Notes under the pieces: model-generated
Databases searched by the model: none
The model's input: only the letters and a program-made list of their open reading frames with translations
What the model was told of the DNA's origin: nothing
Made by a program: the position numbers and the translations under genes
Origin: Bacteroidota bacterium
Lineage (GTDB): Bacteria; Bacteroidota; Ignavibacteria; UBA10030; SZUA-254
Assembly: GCA_049515655.1 (NCBI GenBank)
Contig: JBEKTW010000012.1
Coordinates: forward strand, 8,904 to 72,903
DNA length: 64,000 bases
Reading direction: 5' to 3'
Part shown: piece by piece, positions 6,118 to 45,543 of the stretch
Position numbering within the stretch: position 1 is the stretch's first letter
Layout: each line of letters opens with the position of its first letter

Positions 6118-8238
6118 ATGAAGCGTAGATATCGATTTCTCGTTATGGTGTTGGTCATGGCGACTGTCACGGCCGTGGAGTCACAGGCGCAATGGGTTCA
6201 GTCCGACTGCCCTTACGGTGGGGCTTTCGACAACCTCGCCGTGAATGAAAAGTATGTTCTCGCAAACGGGTTCTTTTATTCGAGCGATATGGGGTCAACG
6301 TGGCAGGCTACCGGGTTTGGAAGATGGTCAAGATGCCTGGCCGTCGCCGATTCAAACGTGTTCGCGGGCGACTTGTGGGGGTCAGTCTACGTCTCGACCG
6401 ACTACGGGTTGACCTGGGCGACCGCCGGAACGGGGAAAAGTGGGTTACCGGCCAGTGTGATCTATTCGCTTGTCGCGATGCCCGGGTGGGCCGGGGGAAA
6501 TGTGATCGCCGGTACCGACAGCGGGGCGTACCGGTCGACGGATAGGGGCGCATCATGGAGCGCCGTTAATAACGGCATCGCCGCCTATGATCAGGTCGCC
6601 TCTCTGATGCTCGACGCAACGTACATCTTTGCCGGTACGCAGACCGGGGTGTACCTTTCCACGGACTTTGGAACGACATGGAAACTCGTCACCTACGCGG
6701 GCAGCAAAGTCTGCGCGTTCGCATCCGTCGCGTCCTATGTCTACGCCGGCACTGTGAGCAGCGGCGTCCTACGCTCGACGAATTATGGAAAAGACTGGCA
6801 GCCGGTCAACGGAGGACTTACAAGCAACAGTGTTCTCTGCATTGCGATCGGCCCCGCCATAACAGGTGGCTATAACGTGTACGCCGGTACGCCTGACGGC
6901 GTATTCGTCTCGGGAACCACGGGGTCCTCGTGGCAGGCTCTGGGCCTTTCGGGGTATACTATTCAATCGCTCGTCACCCTCGGTGTTGAGCCCCTCGCGG
7001 CCACGAAGTTTGGCATATTTAGGTCCACTGACCTGGGGTTGACGTGGCAACCTTCAAGCAACGGCATACCTGCACGTGTGTGGGCTCTCGGCTCTTATGG
7101 TTACAAGACGCTCTCTCTCAGTTCGGCAGGTTTTTGCGTGTCCATGGATGGGGGGCAAAGTTGGTCGCAATCGAATACGGGGCTGCCCGACAATAGCTTC
7201 AGCTCTCTCGCCATTAATTCATCGATGATCTTCGTCGGAAGCTCTGTCAACGGAGTCTACCGGGCGAGCGTCAGTAGGATGGTATGGGAGGCGGATACGA
7301 TCGGCATGGGGCCTCAGGCGCAGGTGGCGTCAATTGCGGCATCCGACGCCAGGATCTTTGCCGGGCTCAACTGGTGGGGCGGACTTTACGCGTCGTGCGA
7401 TAATGGAGGCCGGTGGAGCGCTGTGCAGTCAAACTCCCTCTGGAATAACCACCGCTCCGTCTATTCGATCGTATTGAGGGACTCGCTCGTCGTCGCCAAT
7501 ACCGACGGCGGGGTGTACGTTTCTTCCGACAACGGCGTAACATGGTTGGTGCGGGCGCTTGAGAAATACAGGGTGAATGCACTGGCTTTCGGTGGGCAGG
7601 TACTGTATGCCGGAACATCCAGCGCGGGGGTATTCACGTCCACCGACAACGGCGTGAGCTGGTCCGGCGGCGGAACGGCAAGTGGTCTGACGAACACCCA
7701 TGTGAATTGCTTCGCGACGAAAGGAACCAATGTTTTTGCGGGAACCAATCAGGGGATTTTCCTTTCGACCGATAGCGGGACGTCCTGGTCGTCAGTTACA
7801 GTAACGAACCCGGCTCTTGACTCCGGCGGCGTTTATTGCCTCGCAATTGTTAATTCCCAGCTTCTTGCGGTCGTGTCCGCCGGCGGGGTGTGGCGCAGGC
7901 CACTCTCGCAGATGATAACAGATGTTCCGCCCAGCCGGCGCAACATTCCCCTCACATACAATCTCGACCAGAATTATCCGAACCCGTTCAATCCCACGAC
8001 AACAGTGTCATTTGTTATTGGTCATTCGTCATTGGTGACACTCACGGTGTACGACATACTGGGACGGCAAGTCGCGACGCTGGTGAACGAGGTAAAGCCA
8101 CCGGGTGAGTATACGGTTCGGTGGAATGCAGACGGAGTGCCGAGCGGTGTTTACTTCTACCGTCTGACGGCCCGCCCAACAGACGGCGGGCAGGCCGGAA
8201 GGTTCAGTGATACAAAAAAACTATTGTTGATTAATTAG
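6118..8238 (+). CDS. BNR/Asp-box repeat protein with T9SS C-terminal sorting domain
   Basis: 706 aa with a signal peptide. At least 10 Asp-box repeats (STDYGLTW, STDRGASW, STDFGTTW, SSDNGVTW ...). C-terminus is NLDQNYPNPFNPTTTVSF...GVYFYRLTARP...KKLLLIN. Confidence 0.8.
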   Translation: MKRRYRFLVMVLVMATVTAVESQAQWVQSDCPYGGAFDNLAVNEKYVLANGFFYSSDMGSTWQATGFGRWSRCLAVADSNVFAGDLWGSVYVSTDYGLTWATAGTGKSGLPASVIYSLVAMPGWAGGNVIAGTDSGAYRSTDRGASWSAVNNGIAAYDQVASLMLDATYIFAGTQTGVYLSTDFGTTWKLVTYAGSKVCAFASVASYVYAGTVSSGVLRSTNYGKDWQPVNGGLTSNSVLCIAIGPAITGGYNVYAGTPDGVFVSGTTGSSWQALGLSGYTIQSLVTLGVEPLAATKFGIFRSTDLGLTWQPSSNGIPARVWALGSYGYKTLSLSSAGFCVSMDGGQSWSQSNTGLPDNSFSSLAINSSMIFVGSSVNGVYRASVSRMVWEADTIGMGPQAQVASIAASDARIFAGLNWWGGLYASCDNGGRWSAVQSNSLWNNHRSVYSIVLRDSLVVANTDGGVYVSSDNGVTWLVRALEKYRVNALAFGGQVLYAGTSSAGVFTSTDNGVSWSGGGTASGLTNTHVNCFATKGTNVFAGTNQGIFLSTDSGTSWSSVTVTNPALDSGGVYCLAIVNSQLLAVVSAGGVWRRPLSQMITDVPPSRRNIPLTYNLDQNYPNPFNPTTTVSFVIGHSSLVTLTVYDILGRQVATLVNEVKPPGEYTVRWNADGVPSGVYFYRLTARPTDGGQAGRFSDTKKLLLIN

Positions 8239-22607: not shown

Positions 22608-22838
22608 GGAACACCTGATGCTGGTGGGCAGCGGTTCCGCCAAAGGAGAATTCACTGCTCTGAGGCAAAGGAGAAATTCTACGTGAACATAGATCGTAGG
22701 GCAAATACCTCGGCAGCATCGATTCCTATTGCCATGGTTGATGCCCGGAACGAAGGCAGACTCAAGAACGGGGATATAGTTGTACTGGCAGGTTTTGGCG
22801 CTGGATTAACATGGGGCGGTGTCGCAATGAAGTTTTGA
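22608..22838 (+). pseudogene. fabH: 3'-terminal remnant of fabH (3-oxoacyl-ACP synthase III); the 5' part is absent
   Basis: Translates to ...FYVNIDRRANTSAASIPIAMVDARNEGRLKNGDIVVLAGFGAGLTWGGVAMKF*. This matches the conserved FabH C-terminus (..DRYGNTSAASIPLAL..G.IK.GD..LL.AFGGG.TWG), with YG degraded to RA. An in-frame stop lies at 22605 immediately upstream, and nothing encodes the N-terminal 270 aa. Confidence 0.55.
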
Positions 22839-23034
22839 CTAATGTTCAGATCCCATTGATAACGAAGCCAACCTTTGCCTCGTATATTAGGCCATCCCGT
22901 CTTTGAGACCCTCGTGCGTGCGCTTGTCCCCTCCCAAGTGCAAGCATAACTCAGACCCCTGTTAGCGGCATAAGTTGGACGGTTTGTTCGTTTGGATCAG
23001 ATTAGCATCGAAACCGGCTGCATCACCCCTCCGG

Positions 23035-23120
23035 CGCCCCTACCACCTACGACCTATCACCTGTAACCTACTACCCACACCCTATCACCCACAACCTACC
23101 TCCTGCCACCACTTCGCCGG
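23035..23120. repeat. strand-asymmetric C/A/T-rich degenerate tandem repeat (CCTAYCACC-like units)
   Basis: The stretch cctaccacctacgacctatcacctgtaacctactacccacaccctatcacccacaacctacctcctgccacc has almost no G on the top strand, so the complement is G-run rich. Confidence 0.4.
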
Positions 23121-23178
23121 GAACATTCCCTCCTTTCGAAGAGTAAAAGGAGTAAGCAAGTGACATTATGCAAAGGAT

Positions 23179-23325
23179 GTTCGATGTCCAAAATCCGAAG
23201 CACAAAATTCGAAATCATAAACAAAACCTAAGCTCGAAACCCTAAATTCAAAAAAGGCGGAATTGGGTATTTGGACATTCGGATTTAGGATTTGTTTAGA
23301 GTTTAGTTATTCGGATTTCGGATTT
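23179..23325. repeat. A-tract-phased repeat element (modules X and Y, AAATCCGAA / TTCGGATTT motifs), copy A
   Basis: Module X at 23179-23250 (gttcgatgtccaaaatccgaagcacaaaattcgaaatc...). Inverted module Y at 23277-23325 (attcggatttaggatttgtttagag...). X is homologous to the reverse complement of 31253-31327. Confidence 0.5.
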
Positions 23326-23428
23326 ACTTAAGTTTCACGTATTCGTATGTGGAATTTTTCACTAAAAACTATACCTCTGCGTAAGATCACTAAATGACTT
23401 TCATTCACTCTATCGAAAGGGTCCCGCG

Positions 23429-24775
23429 ATGAAATACTACCCGTTGTACGTACTGGTTGCAGCGTGCCTGTTTCTTTTCAACGAAACGGGCAGGGCAATG
23501 TCGTTTCCCCCAGGCGGTGTCATCACGCTCAACGGAACATTGAATACGGGCTGCATTCCCCATAACGGCGGAACAGTCTACCTGCAGATTGAGCTCGATG
23601 CCCGAAACTTTCCGATGACTGCCGTTTGCCGCCACCCGATGAATATTGCCGTCGTTCTTGACCGCAGCGGTTCCATGGCGGATGCGCGGAAGATCGACTA
23701 TGCGAAAAAAGCGATCAATTCCCTTGTCGACGGTCTCTCGAGTGAAGATTACCTCTCGATCGTCATTTATGACGACCGGATCGATGTTCTTCTGCCGGCG
23801 CAGAGAGTTGTGAACAAGGAACGGATTAAGCGCATGGTCCGGGAAATCTATCCCCGCGGCTCGACGAATCTGGGCGGAGGAATGGTGGAAGGATTCCAAC
23901 AGATCGAAAGGAACTTCAGGAATGATTTCGTCAACCGGGTCATCCTGCTTTCTGACGGCCTCGCCAACACCGGCATCACCGACCCGCGGGAGCTCGACCG
24001 CATCGCCAGGACGTATCGCGATAGATCAATATCCCTGACCACGATGGGTGTCGGGTTGGAGTACAACGAAAATCTCATGCTCGGTCTCGCCGAGAACGGG
24101 GGCGGCAACTACTACTTCCTCGAGAGCCCGCACCAGATGGCGTCGATCTTCGAGCGCGAGCTCAACGGCATCGCCCTCGTCGTCGCGCAGAACGCGCACA
24201 TCGAGCTCACTCTCGCCGACCGTGTGACGTTGAATGATGCGGTCGGATGTGAATGGACCCATGAAGGGAATTCATGGATTCTTCCGGTCGGAGATCTCTA
24301 CGCGAACGCCCGCCGCGAGTTCACCGTCGAGTTGAGCTTACCTGAAGGAAGCGGGACGCGCCGTATCACAACCGGTGTCCTGAGGTACAGGGAGAAGAAC
24401 GGGTGGTTTGAGAACTATCCCCGGTTCTCCGTGGATATCCGTTACACTGACAACGCAGCGGAGCTCGAGAAGGGCAAGAACTGGGACACTCAGGCAAAGG
24501 TTGATGTGGCTCTTTCGACGCGCACGGTTGAGCGGGCGATGCAGGCACTCGACACGGGCCGCCGTGACGAGGCCTGCAAACAGTTGGAGGATGCGAAGGC
24601 GAAGCTGCTCTCCTCCCCCGCCATGCTGAACAGCGCCGCGGGTGCGCCGGCGATGAACGATCAAATCAAGCAGCTCGAGGAATATTCCCGGGATATCACA
24701 AGCGCCGCAGGCGACCTTCGCCGGGCCAAGAAGTCCATCCAGTACAACAACCACAAAATGCAGAAAAGCAAGTGA
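23429..24775 (+). CDS. secreted von Willebrand factor A (VWA) domain protein
   Basis: Signal peptide. MIDAS motif DRSGSM...S...T with a VWA fold (IAVVLDRSGSMADARKIDYAKKAI..LSDGLANTG). C-terminal coiled-coil region. Confidence 0.85.
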   Translation: MKYYPLYVLVAACLFLFNETGRAMSFPPGGVITLNGTLNTGCIPHNGGTVYLQIELDARNFPMTAVCRHPMNIAVVLDRSGSMADARKIDYAKKAINSLVDGLSSEDYLSIVIYDDRIDVLLPAQRVVNKERIKRMVREIYPRGSTNLGGGMVEGFQQIERNFRNDFVNRVILLSDGLANTGITDPRELDRIARTYRDRSISLTTMGVGLEYNENLMLGLAENGGGNYYFLESPHQMASIFERELNGIALVVAQNAHIELTLADRVTLNDAVGCEWTHEGNSWILPVGDLYANARREFTVELSLPEGSGTRRITTGVLRYREKNGWFENYPRFSVDIRYTDNAAELEKGKNWDTQAKVDVALSTRTVERAMQALDTGRRDEACKQLEDAKAKLLSSPAMLNSAAGAPAMNDQIKQLEEYSRDITSAAGDLRRAKKSIQYNNHKMQKSK

Positions 24776-25014
24776 TTCTCGACGGATGCCGCGCGCGACG
24801 GACTGCGCGCGGCATCTTTTTCTTGCCTTCCGTTCAAATTTTCTGTACATTCATACCCATGTGTCAATAACAGCGAAGTTCTTTAAGAGCATTCTACCAC
24901 AGCCAGGAAGTTGACAATCAGAACACCTATGCCTCTCGTGAGCAAAACCCGGCTGCAGGAAACCACCCGACCACTCAGTACGTCTCCCCCAATTGCCGAC
25001 CTTTTCATCAAGAA

Positions 25015-25614
25015 ATGAAAACCACCAGTGGCAGCACGGTAGTGTATCGGCGGAGGTTAATCCGGGAAAAAGTCCTCCAGGTGCTGTATGCCTACGAGAT
25101 TTCCAAGGAACCCCTTATCTTTGTCGAGGAACAACAACTCGACGAACTGAAAACGCACCGGAGCGAATTCGAGTTCGCGAAAGATCTAATCAGCCATGTC
25201 GTCCAGCACGAAGCGGAATTAGATGCGATCATCAAATCGAAAGCCTTCCACTGGGAATTCGACCGCATCGCGGTCATCGACAAGATCCTCCTTCGCATGG
25301 GAATCTGTGAGCTGATCCATTTCCCCGATATTCCACCCAAGGTGACGATCAACGAAGCAATTGAGATAGCCAAAGAATACAGCACCACAAAGAGCGGCCC
25401 ATTCGTCAACGGCATCCTCGATGCCATTCACAACGAACTGAAAAACAGCAGTTCCCTGCACAAGACGGGCCGCGGGCTTCTCACAAAGAGCCTCTCACCC
25501 GGACCGCCACGCGCCGTTCATCAGCCGGCGCCAGCGGCCAGGAGAGCCACCGTATCAAGGAAACCCAGCTTGAAGAAAAAACATCTGCGCGTCAAGTTTC
25601 GAAAAGGCATCTGA
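25015..25614 (+). CDS. nusB: transcription antitermination factor NusB with an unusual approximately 55-aa basic C-terminal extension
   Basis: NusB core (RRRLIREKVLQVLYAYEIS ... DRIAVIDKILLRMGICEL ... INEAIEIAKEY) followed by ...PAARRATVSRKPSLKKKHLRVKFRKGI. Confidence 0.8.
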   Translation: MKTTSGSTVVYRRRLIREKVLQVLYAYEISKEPLIFVEEQQLDELKTHRSEFEFAKDLISHVVQHEAELDAIIKSKAFHWEFDRIAVIDKILLRMGICELIHFPDIPPKVTINEAIEIAKEYSTTKSGPFVNGILDAIHNELKNSSSLHKTGRGLLTKSLSPGPPRAVHQPAPAARRATVSRKPSLKKKHLRVKFRKGI

Positions 25615-26882
25615 TGACGGCGGGGGCGACGGGAACAGGCAAGCTTCAGATTTTCTCCTGGACTCTCTTCGATTTCGCTCGAACTGCGTTCTCCGTTATG
25701 ATCAAGACCGTCGGGTACGCGCTGTACTTCCGCGCGATTGTAACGTTGAACTCGCCAAACGGAGACCTCTACTGGGGAATCTCCGACAGCATATCCATGT
25801 TTGCCGCAGCAGTCCTCTCACCGGTTCTTGGAGCTGCCAGCGATTATGCACAGGGAAGAAAGCGGTTCCTGCTCGGCTTCACGCTTCTGTGCGTCGTCTT
25901 CACTGCGCTTCTCGTGACCGTCCGTCCCGGAATGATCTTCCTGGGGATGCTTTTCTTTATTTTCGCCAACATCGGATTCGAAGGCGGATACGCATTCTAT
26001 GACGCGTTCCTTCCCCGAATTACCACCGAAAAAAATTACGGCAGAGTTTCCGGGTACGGATTCGCAATGGGATATCTCGGCGCATTGACAATCCTCGCTC
26101 TTTCATTTCCACTCATCAAAGGTGGATTTGAGCCGTCCAATATATTCAACTTCAGGCTGAGCTTTGGTTTTGCCGCTGTTTTCTTCCTCGTCTTCTCGCT
26201 CCCGCTCTTCTTCATTCTCAAGGAACAACGCGTCCGTCTGGCGGGAAAGATACCCTACATCAGGCTCGGTTTTCGCCGGGCCCTCAAGACGCTCAAACAC
26301 ATCCGTTCCTATCGCAACATCGCCTGGTTCCTGCTGGCGTTCTTTCTCTACATCGACGCCGTGAATACCGTCATCTTTTTCGCGGCCATCTTCGCGCAGG
26401 TGACCCTGCACTTCACCGAAGTCGAGGTCATCATGTTCTTTCTCGTGACGCAGACGACCGCGATCCTGGGAGCAGTATTATTCGGCATCCTCGCCGACTA
26501 TATCGGTCCGAAGAAAACGATCAGCATCACGCTCATCATGTGGATTTGCGTGGTCATCGGTGCGTTCTTCGTTGAGTCAAAAATCGCCTTCTACGGCGTC
26601 GGATTACTCGCCGGTTTGTCAATAGGGTCGTCCCAATCTTCAAGCAGGAGTCTTATGGCGAAGCTGACGCCACCCGAGCACGCGGGGGAATTCTTCGGCT
26701 TCTATGACGGGATCTGCGGAAATGCTTCCGCAATTCTCGGTCCCTCGATCTTCGGATTGATCTCTGCGGCCACCGGCAGTCAGCGACTCGCAGTTCTCTC
26801 CATCGGCTTCTTCTTTATTACCGGGCTCTCTCTTCTGCAAAAGGTGAGGGAAGAACCCCCGGGCGCCGTGCTCCCTACGTGA
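25614..26882 (+). CDS. MFS transporter
   Basis: 422 aa, about 12 TM helices, MFS-like loop motifs. The start overlaps the nusB stop (ATGA). Confidence 0.8.
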   Translation: MTAGATGTGKLQIFSWTLFDFARTAFSVMIKTVGYALYFRAIVTLNSPNGDLYWGISDSISMFAAAVLSPVLGAASDYAQGRKRFLLGFTLLCVVFTALLVTVRPGMIFLGMLFFIFANIGFEGGYAFYDAFLPRITTEKNYGRVSGYGFAMGYLGALTILALSFPLIKGGFEPSNIFNFRLSFGFAAVFFLVFSLPLFFILKEQRVRLAGKIPYIRLGFRRALKTLKHIRSYRNIAWFLLAFFLYIDAVNTVIFFAAIFAQVTLHFTEVEVIMFFLVTQTTAILGAVLFGILADYIGPKKTISITLIMWICVVIGAFFVESKIAFYGVGLLAGLSIGSSQSSSRSLMAKLTPPEHAGEFFGFYDGICGNASAILGPSIFGLISAATGSQRLAVLSIGFFFITGLSLLQKVREEPPGAVLPT

Positions 26883-27229
26883 TGAAGAAACGTTCAGCCG
26901 CGGAATTTTGTTTAGTGAAGGAAACCCGGGGGTGGTGTCTCAGTTTGAAGTCGCTATGTCCACGTTCGACCCCCTCTTGTATTGAGGCTGTCCAGAAAGT
27001 CCCGGCGTCATGCTGAAGTGCTTTTGTTCAGCATCCATTCTGCGCGTGCCGAGTTCAGATTCCGAACAGAAGCATTTCGGAATGACGGATTGGCCTATTT
27101 CTTGGACAGCCTCGACGGAAGGTGGGGTGTGGGCGCAGCTCTGCGAAATAGGAATGATACACTACCAGCGGGGCCTGTGGTTTGCCTTTTTCTTGATTTC
27201 TTCGTAATTATGACCCTGAAGGATACTTT

Positions 27230-27673
27230 ATGAAATGCATTTTAGCTCTGTTTGCCTCCCTTGCCCTGTTGACCGGCAGCGCTTCTGCGTTCGGCGAGAA
27301 GCCGGACGAAAACGCCTCGGTCAGGTGCGAGGTCAGCATGAAACAAAAATCGATCAAAGCCGGGGCAACGGGTCAGATCCTTGTTTCGTTGCAGCCGAAG
27401 AAAGGAATCCACATCAATCTCGACCAGCCGATCCAGATAAGAATGGATAGCGCGGAAGTCATCGCTTCCGTCGGCAAACCGGAGATCCCCGTGATCGATA
27501 CATCGTATGACGCATCCAAACCCATCCGGCTGCGCGTCACCATCTCCAAAAACGCAAAACCGGGGAAATTCAGTCTCCGCGGGACGGTGATTTATTTCTA
27601 TTGCTCGGACACGGAGGGCTGGTGCAGCAGATTCAAGCAGCCGATTGACGTTCAATGCACGGTAACTAAGTAG
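27230..27673 (+). CDS. small secreted protein, possibly DsbD-alpha (N-terminal domain)-like
   Basis: Signal peptide. A C-x5-C pair inside FYCSDTEGWCSRF resembles the DsbD-alpha catalytic CysX5Cys. This assignment is tentative. Confidence 0.4.
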   Translation: MKCILALFASLALLTGSASAFGEKPDENASVRCEVSMKQKSIKAGATGQILVSLQPKKGIHINLDQPIQIRMDSAEVIASVGKPEIPVIDTSYDASKPIRLRVTISKNAKPGKFSLRGTVIYFYCSDTEGWCSRFKQPIDVQCTVTK

Positions 27674-27679
27674 CCGTTC

Positions 27680-28405
27680 ATGTCCAAGGTATATTTCATT
27701 TCCGATGCTCATCTGGGCCTCGGCCCGGAGGAAGAAGAACGGGGAAAAGAACGCCGCATCATAGCTTTTTTGGATTCCATCGCGAACGATGCAAACCAGC
27801 TCTTCATCGTCGGCGACCTCTTCGACGCCTGGTTTGAGTACCGGACGGTCATGCCAAAGGGGTATCACCGCCTGCTCACAAAACTCGAAGATCTGGTCCT
27901 CCGAGACATCAAGGTGCACTACCTCGTCGGCAATCACGATTTCTGGATCCGGAATTACTTTCATGACAGGCTGGGTATGACAGTCTACCGGCATGCATTC
28001 GAGACAACAATCGACGGCAAGAGATTTTTCATCCATCACGGCGATGGCCTGGCCAACAACGACACGGGATACAAGATACTCAAGAAGATTTTACGGAACC
28101 CTCTCGCCATGTGGCTGTACTCGTGGGTTCACCCCGACATCGGTGTCGCACTTGCCGGGTTCTCGTCAAAGAAGAGCCGGCAGTACACCGCCGAGAAGCA
28201 CTACGGGGAGGAGGACGGCATGGTGAAATTCGCCGCTGAAAAAATCAGACAGGGAATCGACGTCGTCATCATGGGCCATCGGCATCAGCCGGTAGTAAAA
28301 GAGATGGGGAAAGGACTGTACGTCAATCTCGGCGATTGGATTGAGCATAACACGTATGCTGAGGCAGCCAACGGCGTGGTGAGTCTCAAAACCTGGAAGC
28401 CATGA
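27680..28405 (+). CDS. lpxH: UDP-2,3-diacylglucosamine diphosphatase (LpxH-family calcineurin-like metallophosphoesterase)
   Basis: Motifs ISDAHLG, GDLFDAW, GNHDFW, HHGDG and GHRHQP lie in the order and spacing typical of LpxH. Confidence 0.7.
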   Translation: MSKVYFISDAHLGLGPEEEERGKERRIIAFLDSIANDANQLFIVGDLFDAWFEYRTVMPKGYHRLLTKLEDLVLRDIKVHYLVGNHDFWIRNYFHDRLGMTVYRHAFETTIDGKRFFIHHGDGLANNDTGYKILKKILRNPLAMWLYSWVHPDIGVALAGFSSKKSRQYTAEKHYGEEDGMVKFAAEKIRQGIDVVIMGHRHQPVVKEMGKGLYVNLGDWIEHNTYAEAANGVVSLKTWKP

Positions 28406-30633
28406 AGGCATTTACTTCAAAACCTAATTCCCTGAGGAATCGACGCAACGCGTATATTGCCGGAAGCATTATCGGAGCTCTCCTGCTGGTCGCGTATGGC
28501 ATTTACATCATGTCGGGCCTGCCTTCGCTCGAGCAGCTTGAGAATCCAAAATCGGAGCTTGCCACAAAAATTTATTCGACCGACGGAGAAGTTCTCGATC
28601 AGTTTTTCATCAAGAACCGGACACAGGTAACCCTCTCCGAACTGCCGCCCTATCTCGTCAACGCACTTATAGCGACGGAAGACAAGGATTTCTATCAGCA
28701 CTGGGGTGTGGACCTGCCGCGCATCGCCAGGGCGATGGTCAAAAATATCTTTACGCTCCGGCTGCGCGAAGGTGCAAGCACGATCACACAGCAACTTGCG
28801 CGCAATCTCTACGGCTTCAAAGGGGTCCACGAGTTGTTGCCGGCAAAGATCACGCGAAAAATCCGTGAGTTTATCACCGCGGTGCAGATCGAGCGCAACT
28901 ATACAAAAGAAGAGATTCTTGAGATGTACTTGAACGTCGCGTACTTCGGCAGGAGCGCCTACGGAATCGCCGCGGCTTCGCAAATCTATTTTGGCAAGAA
29001 TCCTTCAAACTTGACTCTGGGTGAAACAGCCATTCTCATTGCGATGTTAAAAGGCCCGGGAATCTACGACCCGTTCAAGCATCGTGAGGCCGCGCTCAAC
29101 CGGCGCAACACCGTCCTGAGCCAGATGACAAAATACGGTTACATTACGGAGGCAGAAGAAAAGGCCGCCAGACAGGAGCACTTGAGCCTCCGGCCGATCA
29201 ACGAACAACAGGCTGGCGGGATAGCGCCGCATTTCGTGGAGTGGATACGGCAGCAGCTTATCCAGAAAGCGGAAAAATATGGTTTCGATATCTATCGTGA
29301 CGGCCTGTCAGTGTACACGACGCTCGATAGTCGAATGCAGCGCTACGCGAACCGTGCCGCCAGAGAACACCTTGCCGACTACCAGAAGTCATTCAACGAA
29401 ACGTGGCAGTGGAAAGACCATCCCTCCGAATTAAGCAGAGCCGTGTCTCAGGCAATCTGGACATCCGATGCGTATCGCCAGGCGGAACCTCAGAAGCGCG
29501 ACAGCATCTACCGGGCACTTAGAAAGAACAGGGCTTTCGTCGATTCCGTGAGCAAGGACGCGAAGCATATCGAGGTCGGTTTCGTTGCGGTCGACCATCG
29601 AACCGGGTACATTCTCGCCATGGTGGGCGGATCTCCGTTCGAGAATTTCAAGTACGGATTGAATCACACGACGCAGATTCGCCGACAGCCCGGTTCCGCG
29701 TTCAAGCCGTTCGTGTACACCGTGGCCATCGACAACGGCTATCCCCCCTGCTACGAATTGCTGAACCAGCCTGTGACCATTATAATGGCAAATGGGCAAC
29801 GCTGGGCCCCGTCGAATTTTGACGGAAGGTTCGGGGGCAAGTTCACTCTCCGTGAAGGGATCAAACATTCCATCAACCTCATCGCCATCAGGGCAATCAT
29901 GGAAATCGCGCCCGTTGGCCAGGTCGTCAGCTATGCGCATCGCATGGGGATAAAATCCGACATTCCTCCGTATGAGTCGATCGCGATAGGAACTGCTGAA
30001 GTGCAGCCCCTGGAGATCACGGCCGCCTACGGCGTGTTCGCGAACGACGGCGTCTACGTTGAACCCATTTCTATTGTGAGAATTGAAGACAAGAATGGGA
30101 ATGTGATCGAAGATACCAAAGCGGATAAGCGTGAGGTGTTGAGCCCGGAAACGGCCTACCTGCTTACCAGCATGATGGAAGACAATGTCAACGGAGGAAC
30201 AGGCGGCCGCGTGAGGCTGTACTTTCACCTGCCAGCCGCAGGCAAAACCGGAACGACGCAGGAATTCGCCGACGCGTGGTTTATCGGGTTCACGCCGCAC
30301 ATCACTGCCGGCGTATGGGTGGGGTTCGACAACAAAACTGTACATTTTACAAACATCGACGGACAAGGCGGACACGCAGCTGCGCCCATCTGGGCCCGTT
30401 TCATGCAGTACGTCTATGATGACCCGGAAATCGGAATGCCCCTGGATTATTTCAATCAACCGGAAGGGGTCGAGCGGGACACGATTTGCTCCGAGACAAA
30501 AAAATTAGCAACTCCGTTCTGTCCCGAGCGGATGGAGGAAGTCTTCAACAAGAAATACCGGCCGCCTGCGTGCGACAAGCACACGAGCGCGCATTGGAAG
30601 GAAGAAGAGACTAAACCAACGACACGATTTTAA
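28402..30633 (+). CDS. mrcA: class A penicillin-binding protein 1A (bifunctional transglycosylase/transpeptidase)
   Basis: GT51 motifs (EDKDFYQHWGVD, RLREGASTITQQLARN). Transpeptidase motifs SAFKP (SxxK), KHSIN and AGKTGTT (KTG). N-terminal TM anchor. Confidence 0.9.
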   Translation: MKAFTSKPNSLRNRRNAYIAGSIIGALLLVAYGIYIMSGLPSLEQLENPKSELATKIYSTDGEVLDQFFIKNRTQVTLSELPPYLVNALIATEDKDFYQHWGVDLPRIARAMVKNIFTLRLREGASTITQQLARNLYGFKGVHELLPAKITRKIREFITAVQIERNYTKEEILEMYLNVAYFGRSAYGIAAASQIYFGKNPSNLTLGETAILIAMLKGPGIYDPFKHREAALNRRNTVLSQMTKYGYITEAEEKAARQEHLSLRPINEQQAGGIAPHFVEWIRQQLIQKAEKYGFDIYRDGLSVYTTLDSRMQRYANRAAREHLADYQKSFNETWQWKDHPSELSRAVSQAIWTSDAYRQAEPQKRDSIYRALRKNRAFVDSVSKDAKHIEVGFVAVDHRTGYILAMVGGSPFENFKYGLNHTTQIRRQPGSAFKPFVYTVAIDNGYPPCYELLNQPVTIIMANGQRWAPSNFDGRFGGKFTLREGIKHSINLIAIRAIMEIAPVGQVVSYAHRMGIKSDIPPYESIAIGTAEVQPLEITAAYGVFANDGVYVEPISIVRIEDKNGNVIEDTKADKREVLSPETAYLLTSMMEDNVNGGTGGRVRLYFHLPAAGKTGTTQEFADAWFIGFTPHITAGVWVGFDNKTVHFTNIDGQGGHAAAPIWARFMQYVYDDPEIGMPLDYFNQPEGVERDTICSETKKLATPFCPERMEEVFNKKYRPPACDKHTSAHWKEEETKPTTRF

Positions 30634-30681
30634 GAGATTGGAAAACCAGCGGCAGAAAAGCTCTACAGCAGCAACCACAAT

Positions 30682-30841
30682 TTACTGCAATAATTCTTCT
30701 GCGAAAATGTTTGAACTGTCGTCTTCCGTGGTTTCCACCTGATGGGCTCTCAGCTTGTTGAGGATGAACAGAAGCGGGACGGCCGCGAGCGCGGCGATTC
30801 CAATCCACTTTAGCAACTTCGTTATACTTTTCGATTCGTCC
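30682..30841 (-). CDS. possible small (53-aa) single-TM membrane protein
   Basis: ATG at 30841. Product MDESKSITKLLKWIGIAALAAVPLLFILNKLRAHQVETTEDDSSNIFAEELLQ*. It is below the track's size cutoff and preferred over the overlapping track ORF 30611..30808. Confidence 0.3.
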
Positions 30842-31036
30842 ATGACAAAGGGTTCCAGTAATCTAATATACGTTCTATCATAATATACGATTTTTTCTGA
30901 TAAGATACTTGACGAAGATCACATAGAACCTTTTTCCCAACGGGAAACCGGCAGCGGGAGAAGTGCTCTATACGGATTGTTTTGCCCATAATAATAAATC
31001 ATATTACGCAGAGCTATAATTCTAAATGAAAAATAG

Positions 31037-31327
31037 TAAATCCGAATACCGAAACCGTAAACAAATCCTAAATCCGAATATCTAAACTCTAAATTCCGCT
31101 TTTCAGAATCCCGCTCCCCAGCGGAATCCAGAAGCGGGACAATTCCTAAATCTTAATATCCAAATTCTAAACAAGCACCAAGTCCCAGCATCTAAACCAA
31201 GACATCCAAAGAATCAAAAAAGGTTGTCGTTCTGATCGGTGTTTCGATTTTTGCATTTAGAACTTAGATTTTATTTAGGATTTCGGATTTCGTGCTTCGA
31301 ATTTATCTATGATTTTGGACATCGAAC
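31037..31327. repeat. A-tract-phased repeat element, copy B (module Y 31037-31100, internal hairpins, inverted module X 31253-31327)
   Basis: Shares the exact 21-mer aaacaaatcctaaatccgaat and the 12-mer ctaaactctaaa with copy A. The reverse complement of 31253-31327 (gttcgatgtccaaaatc...cgaagcacgaaatccgaaatc) matches module X of copy A, including an identical 17-mer. A TCCCGCT...AGCGGGA inverted repeat lies at 31109-31139. Confidence 0.5.
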
Positions 31328-31366
31328 GTTGCTTTACGTAACGTCACTTAATAATTTCATAGAGAT

Positions 31367-35604: not shown

Positions 35605-35633
35605 AGATCTCTCTTGACTCCCTCAAGAATTAT

Positions 35634-35675
35634 CAATTGCTAACAACCAATTGACAATTGTCGATTAGCAGTTGG
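35634..35675. promoter_or_regulatory. dyad-symmetric element between the deaminase and ThrC-like genes
   Basis: caattgctaa...ttagcagttg is an inverted repeat (9 of 10 bases match) enclosing two CAATTG palindromes. Confidence 0.25.
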
Positions 35676-35710
35676 CCATTCACCATTACCTTGAGATGAT
35701 CAAGCTCGTC

Positions 35711-37985: not shown

Positions 37986-38034
37986 GATTATTGTCCTTTT
38001 TTTGCCTTCGATAACCAGGTAACTACTCAACCAA

Positions 38035-38098
38035 TCAACGATCCAACTACCCAACTATTCAACTACTCAACGATCCAACCACTCAACTATTCAACTAT
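38035..38098. repeat. 32-bp tandem direct repeat x2 (tcaacgatccaactacccaactattcaactac)
   Basis: Two adjacent units differ at 3 positions. Same CAACTA-type 8-mer family as the arrays around the 39.1-39.8 kb cassette. Confidence 0.6.
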
Positions 38099-38106
38099 CG
38101 CACTAT

Positions 38107-39087
38107 TTAACCCATCGTCAATGCCATCGCCGCTTTCTGGGCGTGCATCCGATTTTCAGCTTCATCGTACACAACCGAGTTGGGTCCATCCATTACGCCG
38201 TCGGTCACTTCGATGTTGCGGTCGGCGGGAAGCGGATGCATGTAAATTGCATCGGGTTTTGCCAGCTTTAGCCGTCGCTCGTCCATAATCCACGACGAGT
38301 ATTTGCCGATGATTTTTGCGCCTTCTTTTTCGTCCGCCGTGTGGACCATCGCGCCCCACGACTTAGCGTAGACGACGTCGGCGCCCTTCATCGCGGCATC
38401 CATATCGTTAACCACCTCGAAGCCTGCGCCAAATTTCTTCGCTTGCTCACGCGCTTGATCCATGATCTCCGGCATCAGTTTAAATTCCGGAGGATGCGCA
38501 AGGACGACATCCATTCCAAAGCGCGGCATTTGCAGGATGAGTGATTGCGGTACCGACATCGGTTTCTGGTACGAGGAGGCGTATGCCCATGACACGACGA
38601 TCTTCTTGCGGCGCAGATCGCGTCCCTTCTTTTCGACAATCGTCATCAGGTCGGCGAGTATCTGGTACGGGTGATAGACGTCGCACTGCATATTCAGGAC
38701 CGGCACCCGCGAGTGTTTTGCAACTTCATTGATGTATTTGTTGCCGACGCCCCAGTCCACATGGCGGATGGCGATGCCGTCGAAATACCGGCCAAAAATT
38801 TCTCCGATTTCCTTCGGCGTGTCGCCGTGCGCAATCTGCGTCGACCGCGACTCGATGAATGCCGCGTGCCCGCCGAGTTGTGCCATCCCTGCTTCAAAGG
38901 AACCGCGCGTACGCGTGCTGGAGAAAAAGAATAGCATGGCGAGGACTTTATCGCGCAGCACTGCCTGCGATTCATTCAACGCGCGTTTGCGTTTTAAATC
39001 AAAAGCAACGTCGAGGACAGTTTCAACTTCTTCTTTGCTGAAATCGAGATCGCCGATTAAATCACGGCCATGTAGGTATGTTTGCAT
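38107..39087 (-). CDS. transcarbamylase (ATCase/OTCase superfamily), substrate unknown (YgeW-context paralog 1)
   Basis: STRTR carbamoyl-phosphate motif (FFFSSTRTRGSFEAG), HPYQ and HPLP motifs. 326 aa. Adjacent to carbamate kinase. Confidence 0.8.
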   Translation of the reverse strand: MQTYLHGRDLIGDLDFSKEEVETVLDVAFDLKRKRALNESQAVLRDKVLAMLFFFSSTRTRGSFEAGMAQLGGHAAFIESRSTQIAHGDTPKEIGEIFGRYFDGIAIRHVDWGVGNKYINEVAKHSRVPVLNMQCDVYHPYQILADLMTIVEKKGRDLRRKKIVVSWAYASSYQKPMSVPQSLILQMPRFGMDVVLAHPPEFKLMPEIMDQAREQAKKFGAGFEVVNDMDAAMKGADVVYAKSWGAMVHTADEKEGAKIIGKYSSWIMDERRLKLAKPDAIYMHPLPADRNIEVTDGVMDGPNSVVYDEAENRMHAQKAAMALTMG

Positions 39088-39102
39088 GGGTTCTTCTTTC
39101 GT

Positions 39103-39174
39103 TTGATAGTTCGATAGTTAAATAGTTCAATAGTTAGATAGTTGGATAGTTCAATAGTTCGATAGTTGGATCGT
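39103..39174. repeat. 8-bp-period tandem array (NNATAGTT) of about 9-11 units
   Basis: tgatagtt cgatagtt aaatagtt caatagtt agatagtt ggatagtt caatagtt cgatagtt ... It continues degenerately into the 3' end of the adjacent four-helix-bundle gene. Confidence 0.7.
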
Positions 39175-39597
39175 TCAGTCGTTTGGTGGTTTCTTCGTTG
39201 GATCGTCGGAGCGTTGTTTGTTCGATGCTGAGCCGTGTTCGCGAAGATACGCGATGAATGCATTCATGAGTTGTTTCGCTTCAGTTGCCAAATTGTAAAC
39301 GGCATCCATTTGTTCTTGCGTGACGTACTTGCGATCAAGCGCGAGGTTCAATTCAGACTGTACTTCGCTGGCTGAGCGGCGCGCAATCTTTAGAAACCGG
39401 ATGAATTCCGGATTATAGCCAGAATCGAAGCCCTCTGCTATATTGTGCATCACTGATCCTGCCGCCGCCTGAATCTGATCCCGTAGCCTAAAGTCTTTCG
39501 CAAATCGTGTTCCTTCAGTGAGATCATAGATCGCGTTTGCCAATTTCCGCGCCTTATGCCAACACTCTAGATCTTCAAAGTGTCTGATTGTCCCCAT
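39175..39597 (-). CDS. four-helix-bundle protein (23S rRNA intervening-sequence protein family, TIGR02436/PF05635-like), copy 1
   Basis: MGTIRHFEDLECWHKARKLANAIYDL...RDQIQAAAGSVMHNIAEG...FLKIARRSASEVQSELNLA matches the family consensus. The gene is AT-richer than its flanks. The track start at 39612 is a TTG. Confidence 0.8.
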   Translation of the reverse strand: MGTIRHFEDLECWHKARKLANAIYDLTEGTRFAKDFRLRDQIQAAAGSVMHNIAEGFDSGYNPEFIRFLKIARRSASEVQSELNLALDRKYVTQEQMDAVYNLATEAKQLMNAFIAYLREHGSASNKQRSDDPTKKPPND

Positions 39598-39770
39598 AAA
39601 AATCCTCCCCAACTGTCGAACAATTGAACGACCAAACGATCCAACGATTCAACAACCGAACAATCCAACTACCCAACTACTTAACTACGCAACCACACAA
39701 CTGTACGTTATTCAACGCCCGAACGATCTAACGACCCAACTATTTAACTACTCAACTACGTAACTGTAAG
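39598..39770. repeat. 8-bp-period array (NAACNANN / CAACTAYN), about 20 units, inverted relative to the 39103-39174 array
   Basis: gaacgacc aaacgatc caacgatt caacaacc ... caactacc caactact taactacg. The reverse complement of 39103-39174 aligns with it (shared ccaaacga, gaacgatccaac, caactat). Confidence 0.65.
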
Positions 39771-40751
39771 TTATTCAACAGCACCCAAAACGAGCGAGAT
39801 CAACCCCATTTTCAGGACGACGCCGTAGAATGCTTCCTGCCAGTAGCGCGCCCAGCGGGTAATGTCGACGTCCGGAGGAATCTCATCCATGCGTGGAAGC
39901 GAGTGGAGTAATATCATATCACTCTTTGCCTTGCTCATCAATAGCTCGCGCGTGATCTTGAAATTCGCCGGCGTGAGCGGTCGATCCTTCGTGGCTTCCT
40001 GTCGCGACTGCGAATAATCGGCCTGGATCACCGGCTCGACCAGAATCACATCGGCGTTCGCGATCGCCTGCTCGACGTGCTCCGCTTCGCTAAAGTTAAG
40101 TCCGTACTTCTTGAAATCCGCCTTGTATTCTTCCGGCATTCGCATGTCGGGCGAGTTTGGGAAAAGCGCATTCGGGGCCGGGCCGACGAAAGTGATGGGA
40201 CAATCGAATTGTGTAAGCGCATATCCGAGCGAGTGCATCGTGCGCATTCGCATGTCCCCAACGGCAAGCCAGCGCAGACCGTCAATGCGTCCGCGTTCGC
40301 GGAGGACCGTATAGAGGTCGGTGAGAATCTGGGTCGGGTGTTCGCCCCAGCCGTCACCGCCGTTGATGATCGGTACAGACGACCATTTCGCGGCCTCGTG
40401 CGGCGCCCCTTTCTGAAAATGGCGCATTGCAATCACGTCACCGTAGAACTCGAGCATCTTCACGGTGTCTTTGATGCTCTCCTGATAGTAATCGCCGGCG
40501 CGCGTCATTTTGGCGTCGGCAAAACCAGTAACGTGTCCGCCGAGGCGGTGCATGGCGGCTTCGTGGGAAAGACGCGTGCGCGTGCTGGGCTGATAGAACG
40601 CAGTCACGAGCGTCTTACCCTTGAGCATATCACTGTTCTGGCGATTGCGGGCGATCGGCTCCAGACGTTCCGCAATTTCAAACACGCGGAGGAACTCGCT
40701 TCGTTCAAATTCTTTAAGCGACAGAATGTCGCGACCGATGAAACTACGCAT
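39771..40751 (-). CDS. transcarbamylase (ATCase/OTCase superfamily), paralog 2
   Basis: STRTR motif (FYQPSTRTRLSHEAA), HPTQ, and an HSLP variant of the HPLP/HCLP motif. 326 aa. Confidence 0.8.
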   Translation of the reverse strand: MRSFIGRDILSLKEFERSEFLRVFEIAERLEPIARNRQNSDMLKGKTLVTAFYQPSTRTRLSHEAAMHRLGGHVTGFADAKMTRAGDYYQESIKDTVKMLEFYGDVIAMRHFQKGAPHEAAKWSSVPIINGGDGWGEHPTQILTDLYTVLRERGRIDGLRWLAVGDMRMRTMHSLGYALTQFDCPITFVGPAPNALFPNSPDMRMPEEYKADFKKYGLNFSEAEHVEQAIANADVILVEPVIQADYSQSRQEATKDRPLTPANFKITRELLMSKAKSDMILLHSLPRMDEIPPDVDITRWARYWQEAFYGVVLKMGLISLVLGAVE

Positions 40752-40831
40752 TGTGAAATTCTCCTTTTGTTTTGATGATTACCATTTTCAAACACTCTAC
40801 TCAGGCTCTTGGCTGTTAGCCCTTGGATTAC

Positions 40832-41383
40832 TTACACAATTTCCGACAACAATTCCTTCCTTGGCTGCGGGATAACGACCTTATTGACGAGAAGTCCTTT
40901 CTCCGCAACGATCGCCGCACCCGCGTCGACTGCCGATTGGACGGCGGCGACTTCGCCCGTCAGCGTGAGAAAGGCCTTTCCCCCCAGCGCCATGGCAAGC
41001 CGGATTTCGATCAATTGCACGCGCGCGGCCTTGACGGCGGCGTCGGCGGCTTCGATGAGCGCTGCCACGGAAAATGACTCCACAATCCCCAATGCTTCGA
41101 GCAGGTCGACTTTACTCGTGCCGCCGATTGCGGGAAAAACCGCGGCGTGCACATTCGGGATGACGAACGTGTCAATCACCGAACCCTGTGCAGCGACGCA
41201 TCCCGCTTCGACACTCGAGGTCACTGCGGCGACATCTCCCCCGACAAGCACCATGTACTTGCCCGAGCAGATTGTCCGCGAAAGGATGATTTCCACTTCC
41301 GCTGCTTTGAGCATTGCATCGGCGGCCTGGTAACCCGCCGCAATGCTCGTGAGTTCGATGAGGCCGATGGAGGTCTTAGTCAT
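40832..41383 (-). CDS. pduT: tandem BMC-domain shell protein, PduT-like (BMC-T with the single conserved pore cysteine)
   Basis: Two BMC domains (IGLIELTSIAAGYQAADAMLKAAEVEIIL...GGDVAAVTSSVEAG and LGIVESFSVAALIEAADAAVKAARVQLIEI...TGEVAAVQSAVDAG). The TICSGK motif corresponds to the [4Fe-4S]-ligating Cys of PduT. 183 aa. Confidence 0.85.
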   Translation of the reverse strand: MTKTSIGLIELTSIAAGYQAADAMLKAAEVEIILSRTICSGKYMVLVGGDVAAVTSSVEAGCVAAQGSVIDTFVIPNVHAAVFPAIGGTSKVDLLEALGIVESFSVAALIEAADAAVKAARVQLIEIRLAMALGGKAFLTLTGEVAAVQSAVDAGAAIVAEKGLLVNKVVIPQPRKELLSEIV

Positions 41384-41453
41384 AAAAACGTTCCATGATT
41401 GACGATGGATGATTGATGTCGGCCTTTAGCCCTTGGCTTCTGGCCTTTGGCAT
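41384..41453. repeat. low-complexity repeat (gatgattga units plus ggcctttagcccttggcttctggcctttggc)
   Basis: The reverse complement of 41811-41847 is about 85% identical to 41421-41451. The two flank four-helix-bundle gene copy 2 as inverted repeats. Confidence 0.6.
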
Positions 41454-41810
41454 TTAACTCTTAGAGATTTTCGATATCAGGGCGTTCGTCATCTTTTGCT
41501 CTGACGTCAGTAATCCTGCAACTTTTTCCACTTTCTCGGCTGGGACAAGACAGAGCTCTTGAAGAATCTGTATTTGAGTCTCAAGTTCAAACGCAGAGCC
41601 CATTGATAGCTCCAAGAATCTTTTGAATTCAATCTCACTATTTCTGCTACAGCCTTCTGCGATATTGGACGGAATTGAAACTGCGGCCCTGCACATTTGA
41701 GCCTTCAATCCGTACTGTTCTTCTTTCGGAAGTAATTTCGCAAGATCATACACTTGCTTCACAATCTCAATTCCATCCCTCCAAATAGTCAATTTTCTGA
41801 AGTCTCTCAT
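41454..41810 (-). CDS. four-helix-bundle protein (23S rRNA IVS protein family), copy 2
   Basis: MRDFRKLTIWRDGIEIVKQVYDLAKLLPKEEQYGLKAQMCRAAVSIPSNIAEGCSRNS..FKRFLELSMGSAFELETQIQIL is a textbook family match. About 43% GC. Confidence 0.85.
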   Translation of the reverse strand: MRDFRKLTIWRDGIEIVKQVYDLAKLLPKEEQYGLKAQMCRAAVSIPSNIAEGCSRNSEIEFKRFLELSMGSAFELETQIQILQELCLVPAEKVEKVAGLLTSEQKMTNALISKISKS

Positions 41811-41847
41811 CTTGCCTCCCAAAAGCCAAGAGCCAATGGCTAATAGC
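41811..41847. repeat. inverted partner of repeat 41421-41451 (ccaaaagccaagagccaatggctaatagc)
   Basis: Contains the 15-mer ccaatggctaatagc, whose exact reverse complement gctattagccattgg occurs in the 45438-45543 repeat. Confidence 0.55.
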
Positions 41848-44715: not shown

Positions 44716-44969
44716 TTTGATGTCCTCATTTACTATGGTTAATTGATATCAAGCTCTAAGGGGTTCTTCGTTCTTTGTCATTGGTTCTTAGTCATTGGTC
44801 ATTGCTCTCAGCTTTTGGCTCTTAGCTATTGGCTACCAGCTTCTGAATTCTGTCTTCTGTCTACTTGGTTCCTTGTTCTTTGTTATTGGTTCTTCGTTCT
44901 TTGTCATTCGTCACTGGTCATTAGTGCGTTGTTCCTGCTTCCGTCATCCATCTTCCATCATCCATCGTG
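44716..44969. repeat. modular low-complexity repeat (ttctttgtcattggtt..., ttttggctcttagctattggc, cagcttctgaattctgtcttctg)
   Basis: Same orientation and same modules as 45438-45543, making direct repeats that flank the CoA-binding gene. Confidence 0.6.
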
Positions 44970-45437
44970 TCAAATTCTCCCAAACATCCTCATAAGGAAT
45001 CGATGGAAACCGTGCGCTCCTTTCGGATCGACGAACATAAATAGACATCTGCCGGTTATTACCTCTGCGCCGGTGTCCTTTGCAATTTGAATGGATTTCT
45101 GGGTTTCCGACATCTGTTGAAACCAGATAATCTCGAAACGCCTGTTTGCCACTTGTTCCATCAAAGCGTCGGTGGCACGACGGGGAGTCGCCACAAAGAG
45201 ATTCCTTACAGTTTGTGGAATACCTGCAATACTGGGATTGCATGCCACGCCGTCGATTTGAGTCGCTTCGGGGTGAACCGGATGCACCGAATAGCCATGA
45301 GTTCGAAGATGTTCGAAAAGCTTGTATCCAAATTTCTTCTTATCTCTTGATACTCCTGCAATGGCAATGTCTCTGGCCGAGAGGAATTTTTGAATCAGCT
45401 CCGAAGAGGTCATCCGGTCAATCATGTTCTTTGTCAT
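44970..45437 (-). CDS. CoA-binding domain protein (YccU/YneT-like)
   Basis: IAIAGVSRDKKKFGYKLFEHLRTHGYSVHPVHP matches the CoA_binding-domain consensus (IAVVGAS..P.R.G..V...L...GY.V.PVNP). About 48% GC, lower than its flanks. Confidence 0.7.
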   Translation of the reverse strand: MTKNMIDRMTSSELIQKFLSARDIAIAGVSRDKKKFGYKLFEHLRTHGYSVHPVHPEATQIDGVACNPSIAGIPQTVRNLFVATPRRATDALMEQVANRRFEIIWFQQMSETQKSIQIAKDTGAEVITGRCLFMFVDPKGAHGFHRFLMRMFGRI

Positions 45438-45543
45438 TGGTCATTGGTTCTTGCTTTTGGCTTTTGGCTTTTGGCTATTAGCCATTGGCCTTGGGCTGCC
45501 GGCTTCTGAATTCTGTATTCTGACTACTGGGCTTCTAATTGAC
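45438..45543. repeat. modular low-complexity repeat, direct partner of 44716-44969
   Basis: catgttctttgtcattggtcattggttcttgcttttggcttttggcttttggctattagccattggcc...ccggcttctgaattctgtattctg. Confidence 0.6.

Follow-up and report, generated by a model that had tools for sequence, protein, structure and literature searches.

The 64,000-nt stretch of contig JBEKTW010000012.1 analyzed here (assembly GCA_049515655.1, positions 8,904 to 72,903; hereafter the window) carries two A-tract-rich repeats, A and B, that lie in inverted orientation on either side of an approximately 8-kb block of envelope and housekeeping genes. This raises the question of what such a pair is: a set of promoter modules, the two boundaries of a mobile or invertible segment, or insertions that came to lie there separately. 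An earlier note on this DNA had read the repeats either as curved-DNA promoter modules resembling UP elements or as relatives of MITEs (miniature inverted-repeat transposable elements). Our analysis makes us largely confident that A and B are separate insertions of a non-autonomous, MITE-like foldback element belonging to a clade of uncultured Ignavibacteriota. The MITE half of the suggestion was borne out by inverted ends, target duplications, empty sites, and copies next to unrelated genes, whereas the curved-DNA half was not upheld.

The two repeats had been described as built from two modules, X and Y, arranged in opposite orders and orientations. The inverted pair is real, and its similarity is stronger than was described: A (231 nt) aligns colinearly over its full length, non-repetitive ends included, with the reverse complement of B (350 nt), showing 75% identity in 258 aligned columns, and the local alignment score is 89, as compared with 19.6 ± 2.5 for shuffled sequences. 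Since the colinearity runs from end to end, A and B are a single element in opposite orientations and not the product of reshuffled modules. Relative to A, B contains four extra internal segments of 11, 50, 11, and 46 nt. Both loci exist where they had been placed, but their true boundaries are wider, namely, 23160-23390 for A and 30998-31347 for B. The modules themselves can be recognized within the alignment, with module X giving about 73% identity over 107 nt (about 75% over some 70 bp had been reported) and module Y pairing 23253-23325 with 31031-31103 at 81% complementarity. As stated previously, the X modules share an identical 17-mer, GTTCGATGTCCAAAATC, which occurs exactly twice in the window, at 23179-23195 on the forward strand and at 31311-31327 on the reverse strand. 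At one terminus, the non-repetitive sequence common to A and the reverse complement of B is AAGTGACRTTAYGYAAAG...GTTCGATGTCCAAAATC, and at the opposite terminus it is ATTTTTCA..TATANCTCTGCGTAAKAT.

To describe the ends of the element, six distinct copies from five sites were aligned: A, the long form of B, a short form of B from a relative (L007), and three copies from another metagenome contig (L020a, L020b, and L020c). All six start with [GC]TGAY and finish six bases past GCGTAA. Their terminal inverted repeats (TIRs) are imperfect and about 16 nt long ([GC]TGAYNTTAYGYARAG), the best-kept ends being those of L020c (ACTGACGGTACGCAAAA vs. the reverse-complemented ACTGACGTTACGCAGAG), and the conserved subterminal blocks measure 40-60 nt. 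A consensus fold of the six copies consists of a single helix of 13 pairs that joins both termini and is present in 6/6 of them, and no covariation supporting a conserved internal RNA structure was found in it. The aligned right ends (6 nt after GCGTAA), together with an empty site in the relative L030, set the length of the target duplication at 7 bp. The flanking direct repeats match at 7/7 positions in L020c (TAAATAA/TAAATAA), at 6/7 in L020b (TTATTTA/TTACTTA) and B, at 5/7 in L007, and at 4/7 in A, and the chance of a match of at least 6/7, given the local base composition, is about 0.002 per site. The 7-bp targets are AT-rich (TAAATAA- or TTATTAA-like) and lie at gene boundaries, that is, on stop codons or in the final 20-40 nt ahead of start codons. 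The features of both copies in the window are as follows:

23160..23390, forward strand: complete copy A, aligned end to end with the reverse complement of B and with four other copies; recovered by the end models (nhmmer E ~1e-14); exact empty site in L030/L032
23160..23175, forward strand: left TIR of A, GTGACATTATGCAAAG, pairing with 23375-23390 in the helix kept in all six copies; also matched by the regular expression for the ends
23375..23390, forward strand: right TIR of A, CTCTGCGTAAGATCAC, defined by the terminal helix and the regular expression
23153..23159: left 7-bp target duplication of A, TAAGCAA, a 4/7 match to the right one; single TAAATAA at the L030 empty site
23391..23397: right 7-bp target duplication of A, TAAATGA, defined by the L030 empty site
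23179..23195, forward strand: subterminal 17-mer GTTCGATGTCCAAAATC of A, the most strongly conserved stretch in the family, with no difference between A, B, L007, and L020b and 2-4 changes in L020a/L020c
23196..23345, forward strand: interior of A, with degenerate heptamers in an A-rich array, then a short central part (about 23250-23262) and a T-rich mirror array; lag-7 self-identity about 0.5, hairpin z -5.6
30998..31347, reverse strand: copy B, aligned with the other copies, in a divergent spacer; empty sites in L025/L026 and L003
30998..31013, reverse strand: right TIR of B, ATCATATTACGCAGAG on the forward strand, degenerate and with a 1-nt deletion; defined by the copy alignment and the terminal helix
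31332..31347, reverse strand: left TIR of B, CTTTACGTAACGTCAC on the forward strand, defined by the terminal helix and the regular expression
30991..30997: low-coordinate 7-bp target duplication of B, ATAATAA, a 6/7 match to 31348-31354; single CTAACGA at the L025 empty site
31348..31354: high-coordinate 7-bp target duplication of B, TTAATAA, defined by flank comparison
31096..31140: GC-rich hairpin nested in B and not in A, fold -18.7 / -24.7 kcal/mol, z about -3.1 to -3.2; occurs once in the window
31196..31250, reverse strand: non-periodic middle part of B (element strand AACGACAACCTTTTTTGATT..GATGTCTTGG), which L020a and L020c also have and A lacks
31311..31327, reverse strand: subterminal 17-mer of B, an exact match

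Related genomes made it possible to compare filled and empty sites. The same region as in the window is contained in the 90.9-kb JGI metagenome contig Ga0427939_0000371 and in a Logan assembly. Among the GTDB-representative genomes, the closest one is an Ignavibacteriota metagenome-assembled genome (locus L003), whose PIG-L protein is 85% identical, while relatives retrieved by protein look-up have PIG-L identities of 91% (L025/L026), 90% (L027/L028), and 98% (L029), and L030-L032 encode a VWA protein with 92% amino acid identity. At site A, the empty sequence in L030/L032 reads ...AAAGGAG TAAATAA CTCTCATTCAC...ATG, with good flank identity up to both junctions, and the filled one in the window reads ...AAAGGAG TAAGCAA (231-nt element) TAAATGA CTTTCATTCAC...ATG; the upstream CCTAYCA array and the leader are the same in both. 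At site B, the empty sequence in L025/L026 is ...gcccata CTAACGA tttcagag..., as compared with ...gcccata ATAATAA (350-nt element) TTAATAA tttcatagag... in the window. Site B is also empty in L003, where the spacer is 177 bp long versus 523 bp in the window. L007, L027, and L028 carry a 145-nt version there that keeps its two ends whole and has lost most of the arrays, and L029 has the long version, its contig starting inside the element. There is thus insertion polymorphism between close relatives at both sites. The break in L029 (positions 1-190 of a Logan short-read contig from SRR12951266) lies within element B. The L020 stretch starts one base before an element end, which may also be a contig end.

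The similarity of A and B is not a matter of chance A-rich sequence limited to this pair, a possibility that the earlier note had raised, as further copies exist. A scan with the conserved 17-mer (ANGTTCGATGTCCAAAATC) of a metagenome collection that does not include the source metagenome gave at least 17 hits; among those listed, 15 were chance occurrences within unrelated sequence and two were real (L007 and L020). The L007 hit is the short form of site B, and the end models located the three copies of L020 within 5 kb of each other. The latter adjoin genes for a pectinesterase, a 93-aa open reading frame (ORF) with no Pfam hit, an SDR protein, a DUF4861 protein, and KduI, within a pectin-utilisation cluster. 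In L020b and L020c, the duplicated target contains the stop codon of the upstream gene, and the far duplication of L020c ends 16 nt ahead of the next start codon. Copies thus abut stop codons as well, and they are found in both orientations relative to the transcription of neighbouring genes, which speaks against promoter modules. In total, the dispersed copies occupy at least five sites in at least two or three genomes. Their pairwise identity is only 68-82%, so the family is old. The source copy of A is not among them. No match to the degenerate end pattern was found in viral contigs, blastn with the element gave no match in plasmids and phages, and the left extension of the source contig (L024) contains no copy.

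The interior of the element consists of degenerate heptamer units, with one arm A-rich and the other T-rich, so that the long copies are near-palindromic. In every arm, self-identity is highest at lag 7 (0.5-0.6) and reaches its minimum at lags 10-11 (0.14-0.28), and Tandem Repeats Finder reported 7-nt units as well. Each locus had been called a long imperfect palindrome, and this agrees with the predicted hairpins of A (-67.8 kcal/mol, z -5.6) and B (-77.5 kcal/mol, z -4.2), the z values of the long copies overall lying between -4.2 and -5.6. Because the order of the degenerate units is common to copies at unrelated loci, the arms are best explained as inherited parts of the element, not as arrays grown in place at each site. 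The arrays can also shrink, as at site B (from 350 to 145 nt). The 46-nt GC-rich hairpin nested in B (31096-31140) is found at the same position in L020b (L020 1509-1553) and not in A, L007, L020a, or L020c, and L020b has a second, different GC hairpin at 1318-1352; such nested hairpins could either have been inserted secondarily as small units or belong to the ancestral element. Comparison with Rfam 15 gave no match, either for the window at gathering thresholds or for A and B at E ≤ 1, and no tRNA was found.

Taken together, these data match six features of bacterial MITEs as defined by Delihas (2011, PMC3184786): small size (below about 400 bp), no coding capacity, TIRs, a flanking target duplication, multiple dispersed copies, and filled as well as empty orthologous sites. 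The copies measure 145-367 nt, contain no transposase gene, are overlapped only by short ORFs of up to about 45 aa, and are intergenic and near genes; like MITEs (PMC3184786), they combine a whole-length foldback RNA/DNA structure with presence or absence between close relatives. They differ from MITEs in that no parent insertion sequence was found in the 405 kb searched, in that few copies are known so far, and in the degenerate heptamer units of their arms, which are unusual for MITE interiors. The element is therefore a new family of a well-known kind, an ordinary bacterial "junk" repeat, and no report on MITEs in Ignavibacteria was found in the literature.

Several observations weigh against this reading. 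The distinct copies seen are few (at least about six), the source being a metagenome contig, and regular-expression and nhmmer searches for further ends or an autonomous partner in 405 kb of sequence matched the known copies only. The copies are old, which leaves current activity as a proposal, and the target duplication at A is degraded. The short L007 copy folds no better than shuffled sequences (z -0.5), therefore a hairpin is not needed for persistence. Scans for sigma-70-like promoters and terminators around A and B yielded matches not above chance. Finally, trees of the site B flanks conflict as to which is closer to the window, the empty L025 or the filled L027, so that a gain cannot be told apart from a precise loss in L025.

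We propose that a transposase encoded elsewhere in the genome would recognise the ends and move the element; we can only infer this mobilisation in trans, since the search of 405 kb revealed neither an autonomous partner nor a transposase with matching ends. The heptamer arms would have arisen once by slippage in an ancestral copy and then been inherited, with later deletions between heptamer units, and A and B would simply have landed in opposite orientations at two nearby sites. In the window, A lies 31 nt plus the target duplication upstream of the VWA start codon (23429), and B occupies the divergent spacer between a small transmembrane (TM) protein gene (30682-30843, reverse strand) and the PIG-L gene, 18 nt upstream of the real start of the latter at 31373 (GTG in the window, ATG in relatives). 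Both the VWA and the PIG-L gene are intact. The insertions would separate these genes from the sequence upstream of their original leaders, so transcription would have to run through the element, with a long RNA hairpin in the 5' leader as the result, or else begin inside its ends. The latter option may be considered by analogy with the Correia elements of Neisseria, in which transcription starts inside the element ends (PMC3184786). The two loci had also been called promoter regions; this holds in so far as both lie just upstream of genes, but their promoter-like matches are at chance level.

Four other explanations of the pair were weighed against that of separate MITE-like insertions. We regard it as quite improbable that A and B are curved-DNA or UP-element-like promoter modules, in which phased A-tracts bend the DNA upstream of promoters and which were duplicated as regulatory cassettes. 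Such modules would fit the position of both repeats immediately 5' of start codons, their A/T-rich sequence, one sigma-70-like match directed out of the right end of B (31026 to 30998), and a local predicted bend near 23362 that is in the top 0.02% of the window in a wedge model. The A-tract phase of 10-11 bp on which this idea was based was, however, not confirmed, as the period is 7 nt and self-identity is lowest at lags 10-11. In the same model, which gives a rough estimate, the maximum curvature of A is 33 degrees versus 25 ± 5 for composition-matched shuffles, and B reaches 25.8 degrees versus 26.6 ± 3.4, whereas control A6 tracts give 41 degrees when phased at 10 bp and are nearly straight (3.7 degrees) when phased at 7 bp. 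Helically phased, intrinsically bent DNA at A and B is thus not supported by these predictions. Moreover, the promoter-like matches do not exceed chance, L020b and L020c abut upstream stop codons, and close relatives lack the element in the same promoter regions while keeping the genes intact. An origin of A and B as heptamer arrays grown in place by replication slippage, and alike only through the same unit, is very improbable in our view. It would account for the 7-nt periodicity, for the many other 7/8-nt arrays in the window, and for the lineage-dependent array length at site B (350 vs. 145 nt), and MacGregor (2015, PMC4679880) described intergenic heptamer arrays that close relatives lack in the corresponding spacer. 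In-place growth at A and B is nevertheless largely refuted by three observations: (i) unrelated loci have the order of degenerate units in common, (ii) the arrays are closed off by conserved ends that are non-repetitive and have inverted-repeat symmetry, and (iii) empty sites lack the whole unit, ends included, plus one copy of the 7-bp duplication.

A third explanation derives the copies from cassettes in which PF05635 genes (23S rRNA intervening-sequence protein / four-helix-bundle) are flanked by arrays, the stem being what is left after loss of the gene. The PF05635 genes of the window indeed lie between short-period arrays, inverted in the case of 39217-39600, and L025 has a PF05635 gene where the window has a solo repeat only. 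We give this origin very little credence, because a PF05635 gene or fragment is present in 0/6 copies, the unit flavours of the arrays differ, the flanks of the L025 cassette are direct and not inverted repeats, and the cassettes examined have neither discrete inverted ends ([GC]TGAYNTTAYG in the A/B family) nor 7-bp duplications. The proposal that the pair functions as the boundary of an 8-kb segment able to move or invert, either a composite transposon or an inversion switch, we hold to be extremely improbable. It could appeal to two homologous inverted copies about 7.6 kb apart, and an 8-kb inversion had been thought conceivable. These copies are only 75% identical and thus a poor substrate for homologous recombination, and none of the eight genes between them encodes a transposase or recombinase. 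In addition, the order nusB, MFS, 147-aa protein, LpxH-like, PBP1A, small TM gene, PIG-L is identical, orientation included, in L003, L007, and L025, which are without A and/or B, and no relative was seen to have the block inverted. This synteny contradicts both ideas and agrees with the earlier opinion that a composite transposon was unlikely. L030 and L007 have about 9.8 kb between the VWA gene and nusB that are missing from the window, with a breakpoint near 24815, so that sites A and B are about 18 kb apart in that lineage and the 8-kb block is a by-product of an unrelated deletion, with no special status. The breakpoint falls between the VWA stop codon (24775) and nusB (25015), and the stretch present in L030/L007 encodes a sigma-54 activator, four small ORFs, a 446-aa protein, and a 1509-aa Trypsin_2 protein. 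Another difference lies just upstream of A: after the CDP-alcohol phosphatidyltransferase gene, window positions 22683-22838 hold a fabH remnant, namely its last 51 codons (ACP_syn_III_C), left by a deletion of about 0.7 kb, where L030 has an intact 335-aa fabH.

The MITE-like element was also compared with other known repeat systems. Repetitive extragenic palindromic (REP) sequences are imperfect, GC-rich palindromes of 20-40 nt that are associated with a Y1 transposase. Our element resembles them and the bacterial interspersed mosaic elements (BIMEs) in consisting of extragenic palindromes that are possibly co-transcribed and form hairpins, but it is 5-10 times longer, AT-rich, and provided with TIRs and a duplication; only the nested 46-nt GC hairpin of B is REP-like, in size. 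The Correia elements (NEMIS), known only from Neisseria, possess 26-bp inverted repeats together with a TA duplication and an IHF site. Similarly to them, the present element is small and palindromic, occurs next to genes and inside transcription units, and has long and short variants produced by internal deletion, whereas its inverted repeats of about 16 nt have another sequence, its duplication is 7 bp, and its host is an ignavibacteriote; it was therefore not assigned to that family. The Correia elements offer an analogy for possible outward promoters and RNase III-sensitive hairpins, which for the element described here could be suggested by analogy only. Intergenic arrays of heptamer repeats are known as short tandemly repeated repetitive (STRR) sequences in cyanobacteria. 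Heptamer repeats, TAACTGA among others, have been described in Beggiatoaceae, Cyanobacteria, and Bacteroidetes, including, in Bacteroidetes, intergenic arrays missing in close relatives (MacGregor 2015, PMC4679880). The TAACTGA arrays (PMC4679880) share with the element a 7-nt periodicity, an intergenic position, occurrence in the Bacteroidota-related (FCB) group, and absence from the same spacer of relatives, but they are direct tandem runs of one nearly perfect unit, in contrast to degenerate units arranged in mirror arms within a discrete element that is bounded by inverted ends and flanked by a target duplication. A simple heptamer sequence repeat was also rejected as a class on account of the shared unit order, the conserved non-repeat ends, and the gain or loss of the element as a whole. 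Likewise, neither UP elements or curved promoter DNA phased at 10-11 bp (the period is 7 nt and curvature is not above shuffles) nor composite transposons (no transposase; block syntenic in relatives without copies) provide a suitable class.

For annotation, this means that the A and B loci should be masked as a mobile repeat family and not annotated as regulatory modules, and that the 8-kb housekeeping block should not be treated as a unit that moves or inverts. The family causes breaks in short-read assemblies, as in L029, and marks sites of recent structural change between closely related Ignavibacteriota populations. Copies located 18-31 nt from the PIG-L and VWA starts, and on stop codons elsewhere, constitute a natural experiment on how a hairpin-forming insertion of 150-350 nt relates to expression, in a host phylum without a genetic system.

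Degenerate 7-/8-nt tandem arrays fill further spacers of the window (8007-8036, 23030-23110, 38007-38112, 39083-39216, 39603-39780, 40810-40831, 41421-41455, 44759-44972, 45417-45543, and 51699-51719), with unit flavours such as GTCATTG, CCTAYCA, CAACTAYC, GGCCTTT, GCTTTTG, and others. Some of them are conserved in relatives, the CCTAYCA array being longer in L030 and 8-nt arrays being present in L003, and similar arrays occur in loci of Rhodothermales and Gemmatimonadaceae (L004 and L006), where no obvious flanking PF05635 genes were noticed. Three PF05635 genes lie among the arrays of the window, all on the reverse strand (39217-39600, 41457-41822, and 51690-51887). Around the one at 39217-39600 the arrays are inverted, so that a transcript could enclose the ORF in a long stem. 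When the flanks of four PF05635 genes were scored, 6/8 had a lag-7/8 self-identity of at least 0.66, as compared with 1.2% of background windows. L025 (7990-8560) has a PF05635 gene between those for dCMP deaminase and PALP, with a direct repeat of about 85 nt on each side. Of this repeat, the window has one solo copy (35605-35710) and no PF05635 gene; this polymorphism is consistent with loss by recombination between the repeats. No report linking PF05635 genes to short-period arrays was found in the literature, and their co-occurrence hints at a lineage-wide repeat biology that we did not find described. As a side observation, this association is more curious than the MITE-like element itself. 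The co-occurrence and the L025 cassette polymorphism also led us to consider whether the A/B element might be a non-coding member of a wider, undescribed Ignavibacteriota/FCB system, in which 7-8-nt arrays, also bracketing PF05635 genes, would serve as recombination or RNA-processing substrates. We think this unlikely; if it were true, arrays would let small cassettes enter and leave spacers and operons, as the L025 cassette versus window 35605-35710 may illustrate, and the heptamer arms would be functional and not a slippage fossil.

Two other gene arrangements in the window deserve mention. Positions 3870-4940 and 5006-6067 hold adjacent tandem paralogues of about 355 aa each, which share 300 nt at 70% identity with a spacing of 1127. 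At 38107-39087, 39771-40751, and 40832-41383, two aspartate/ornithine carbamoyltransferase paralogues stand beside a tandem BMC-domain shell protein gene, which is an unusual neighbourhood.

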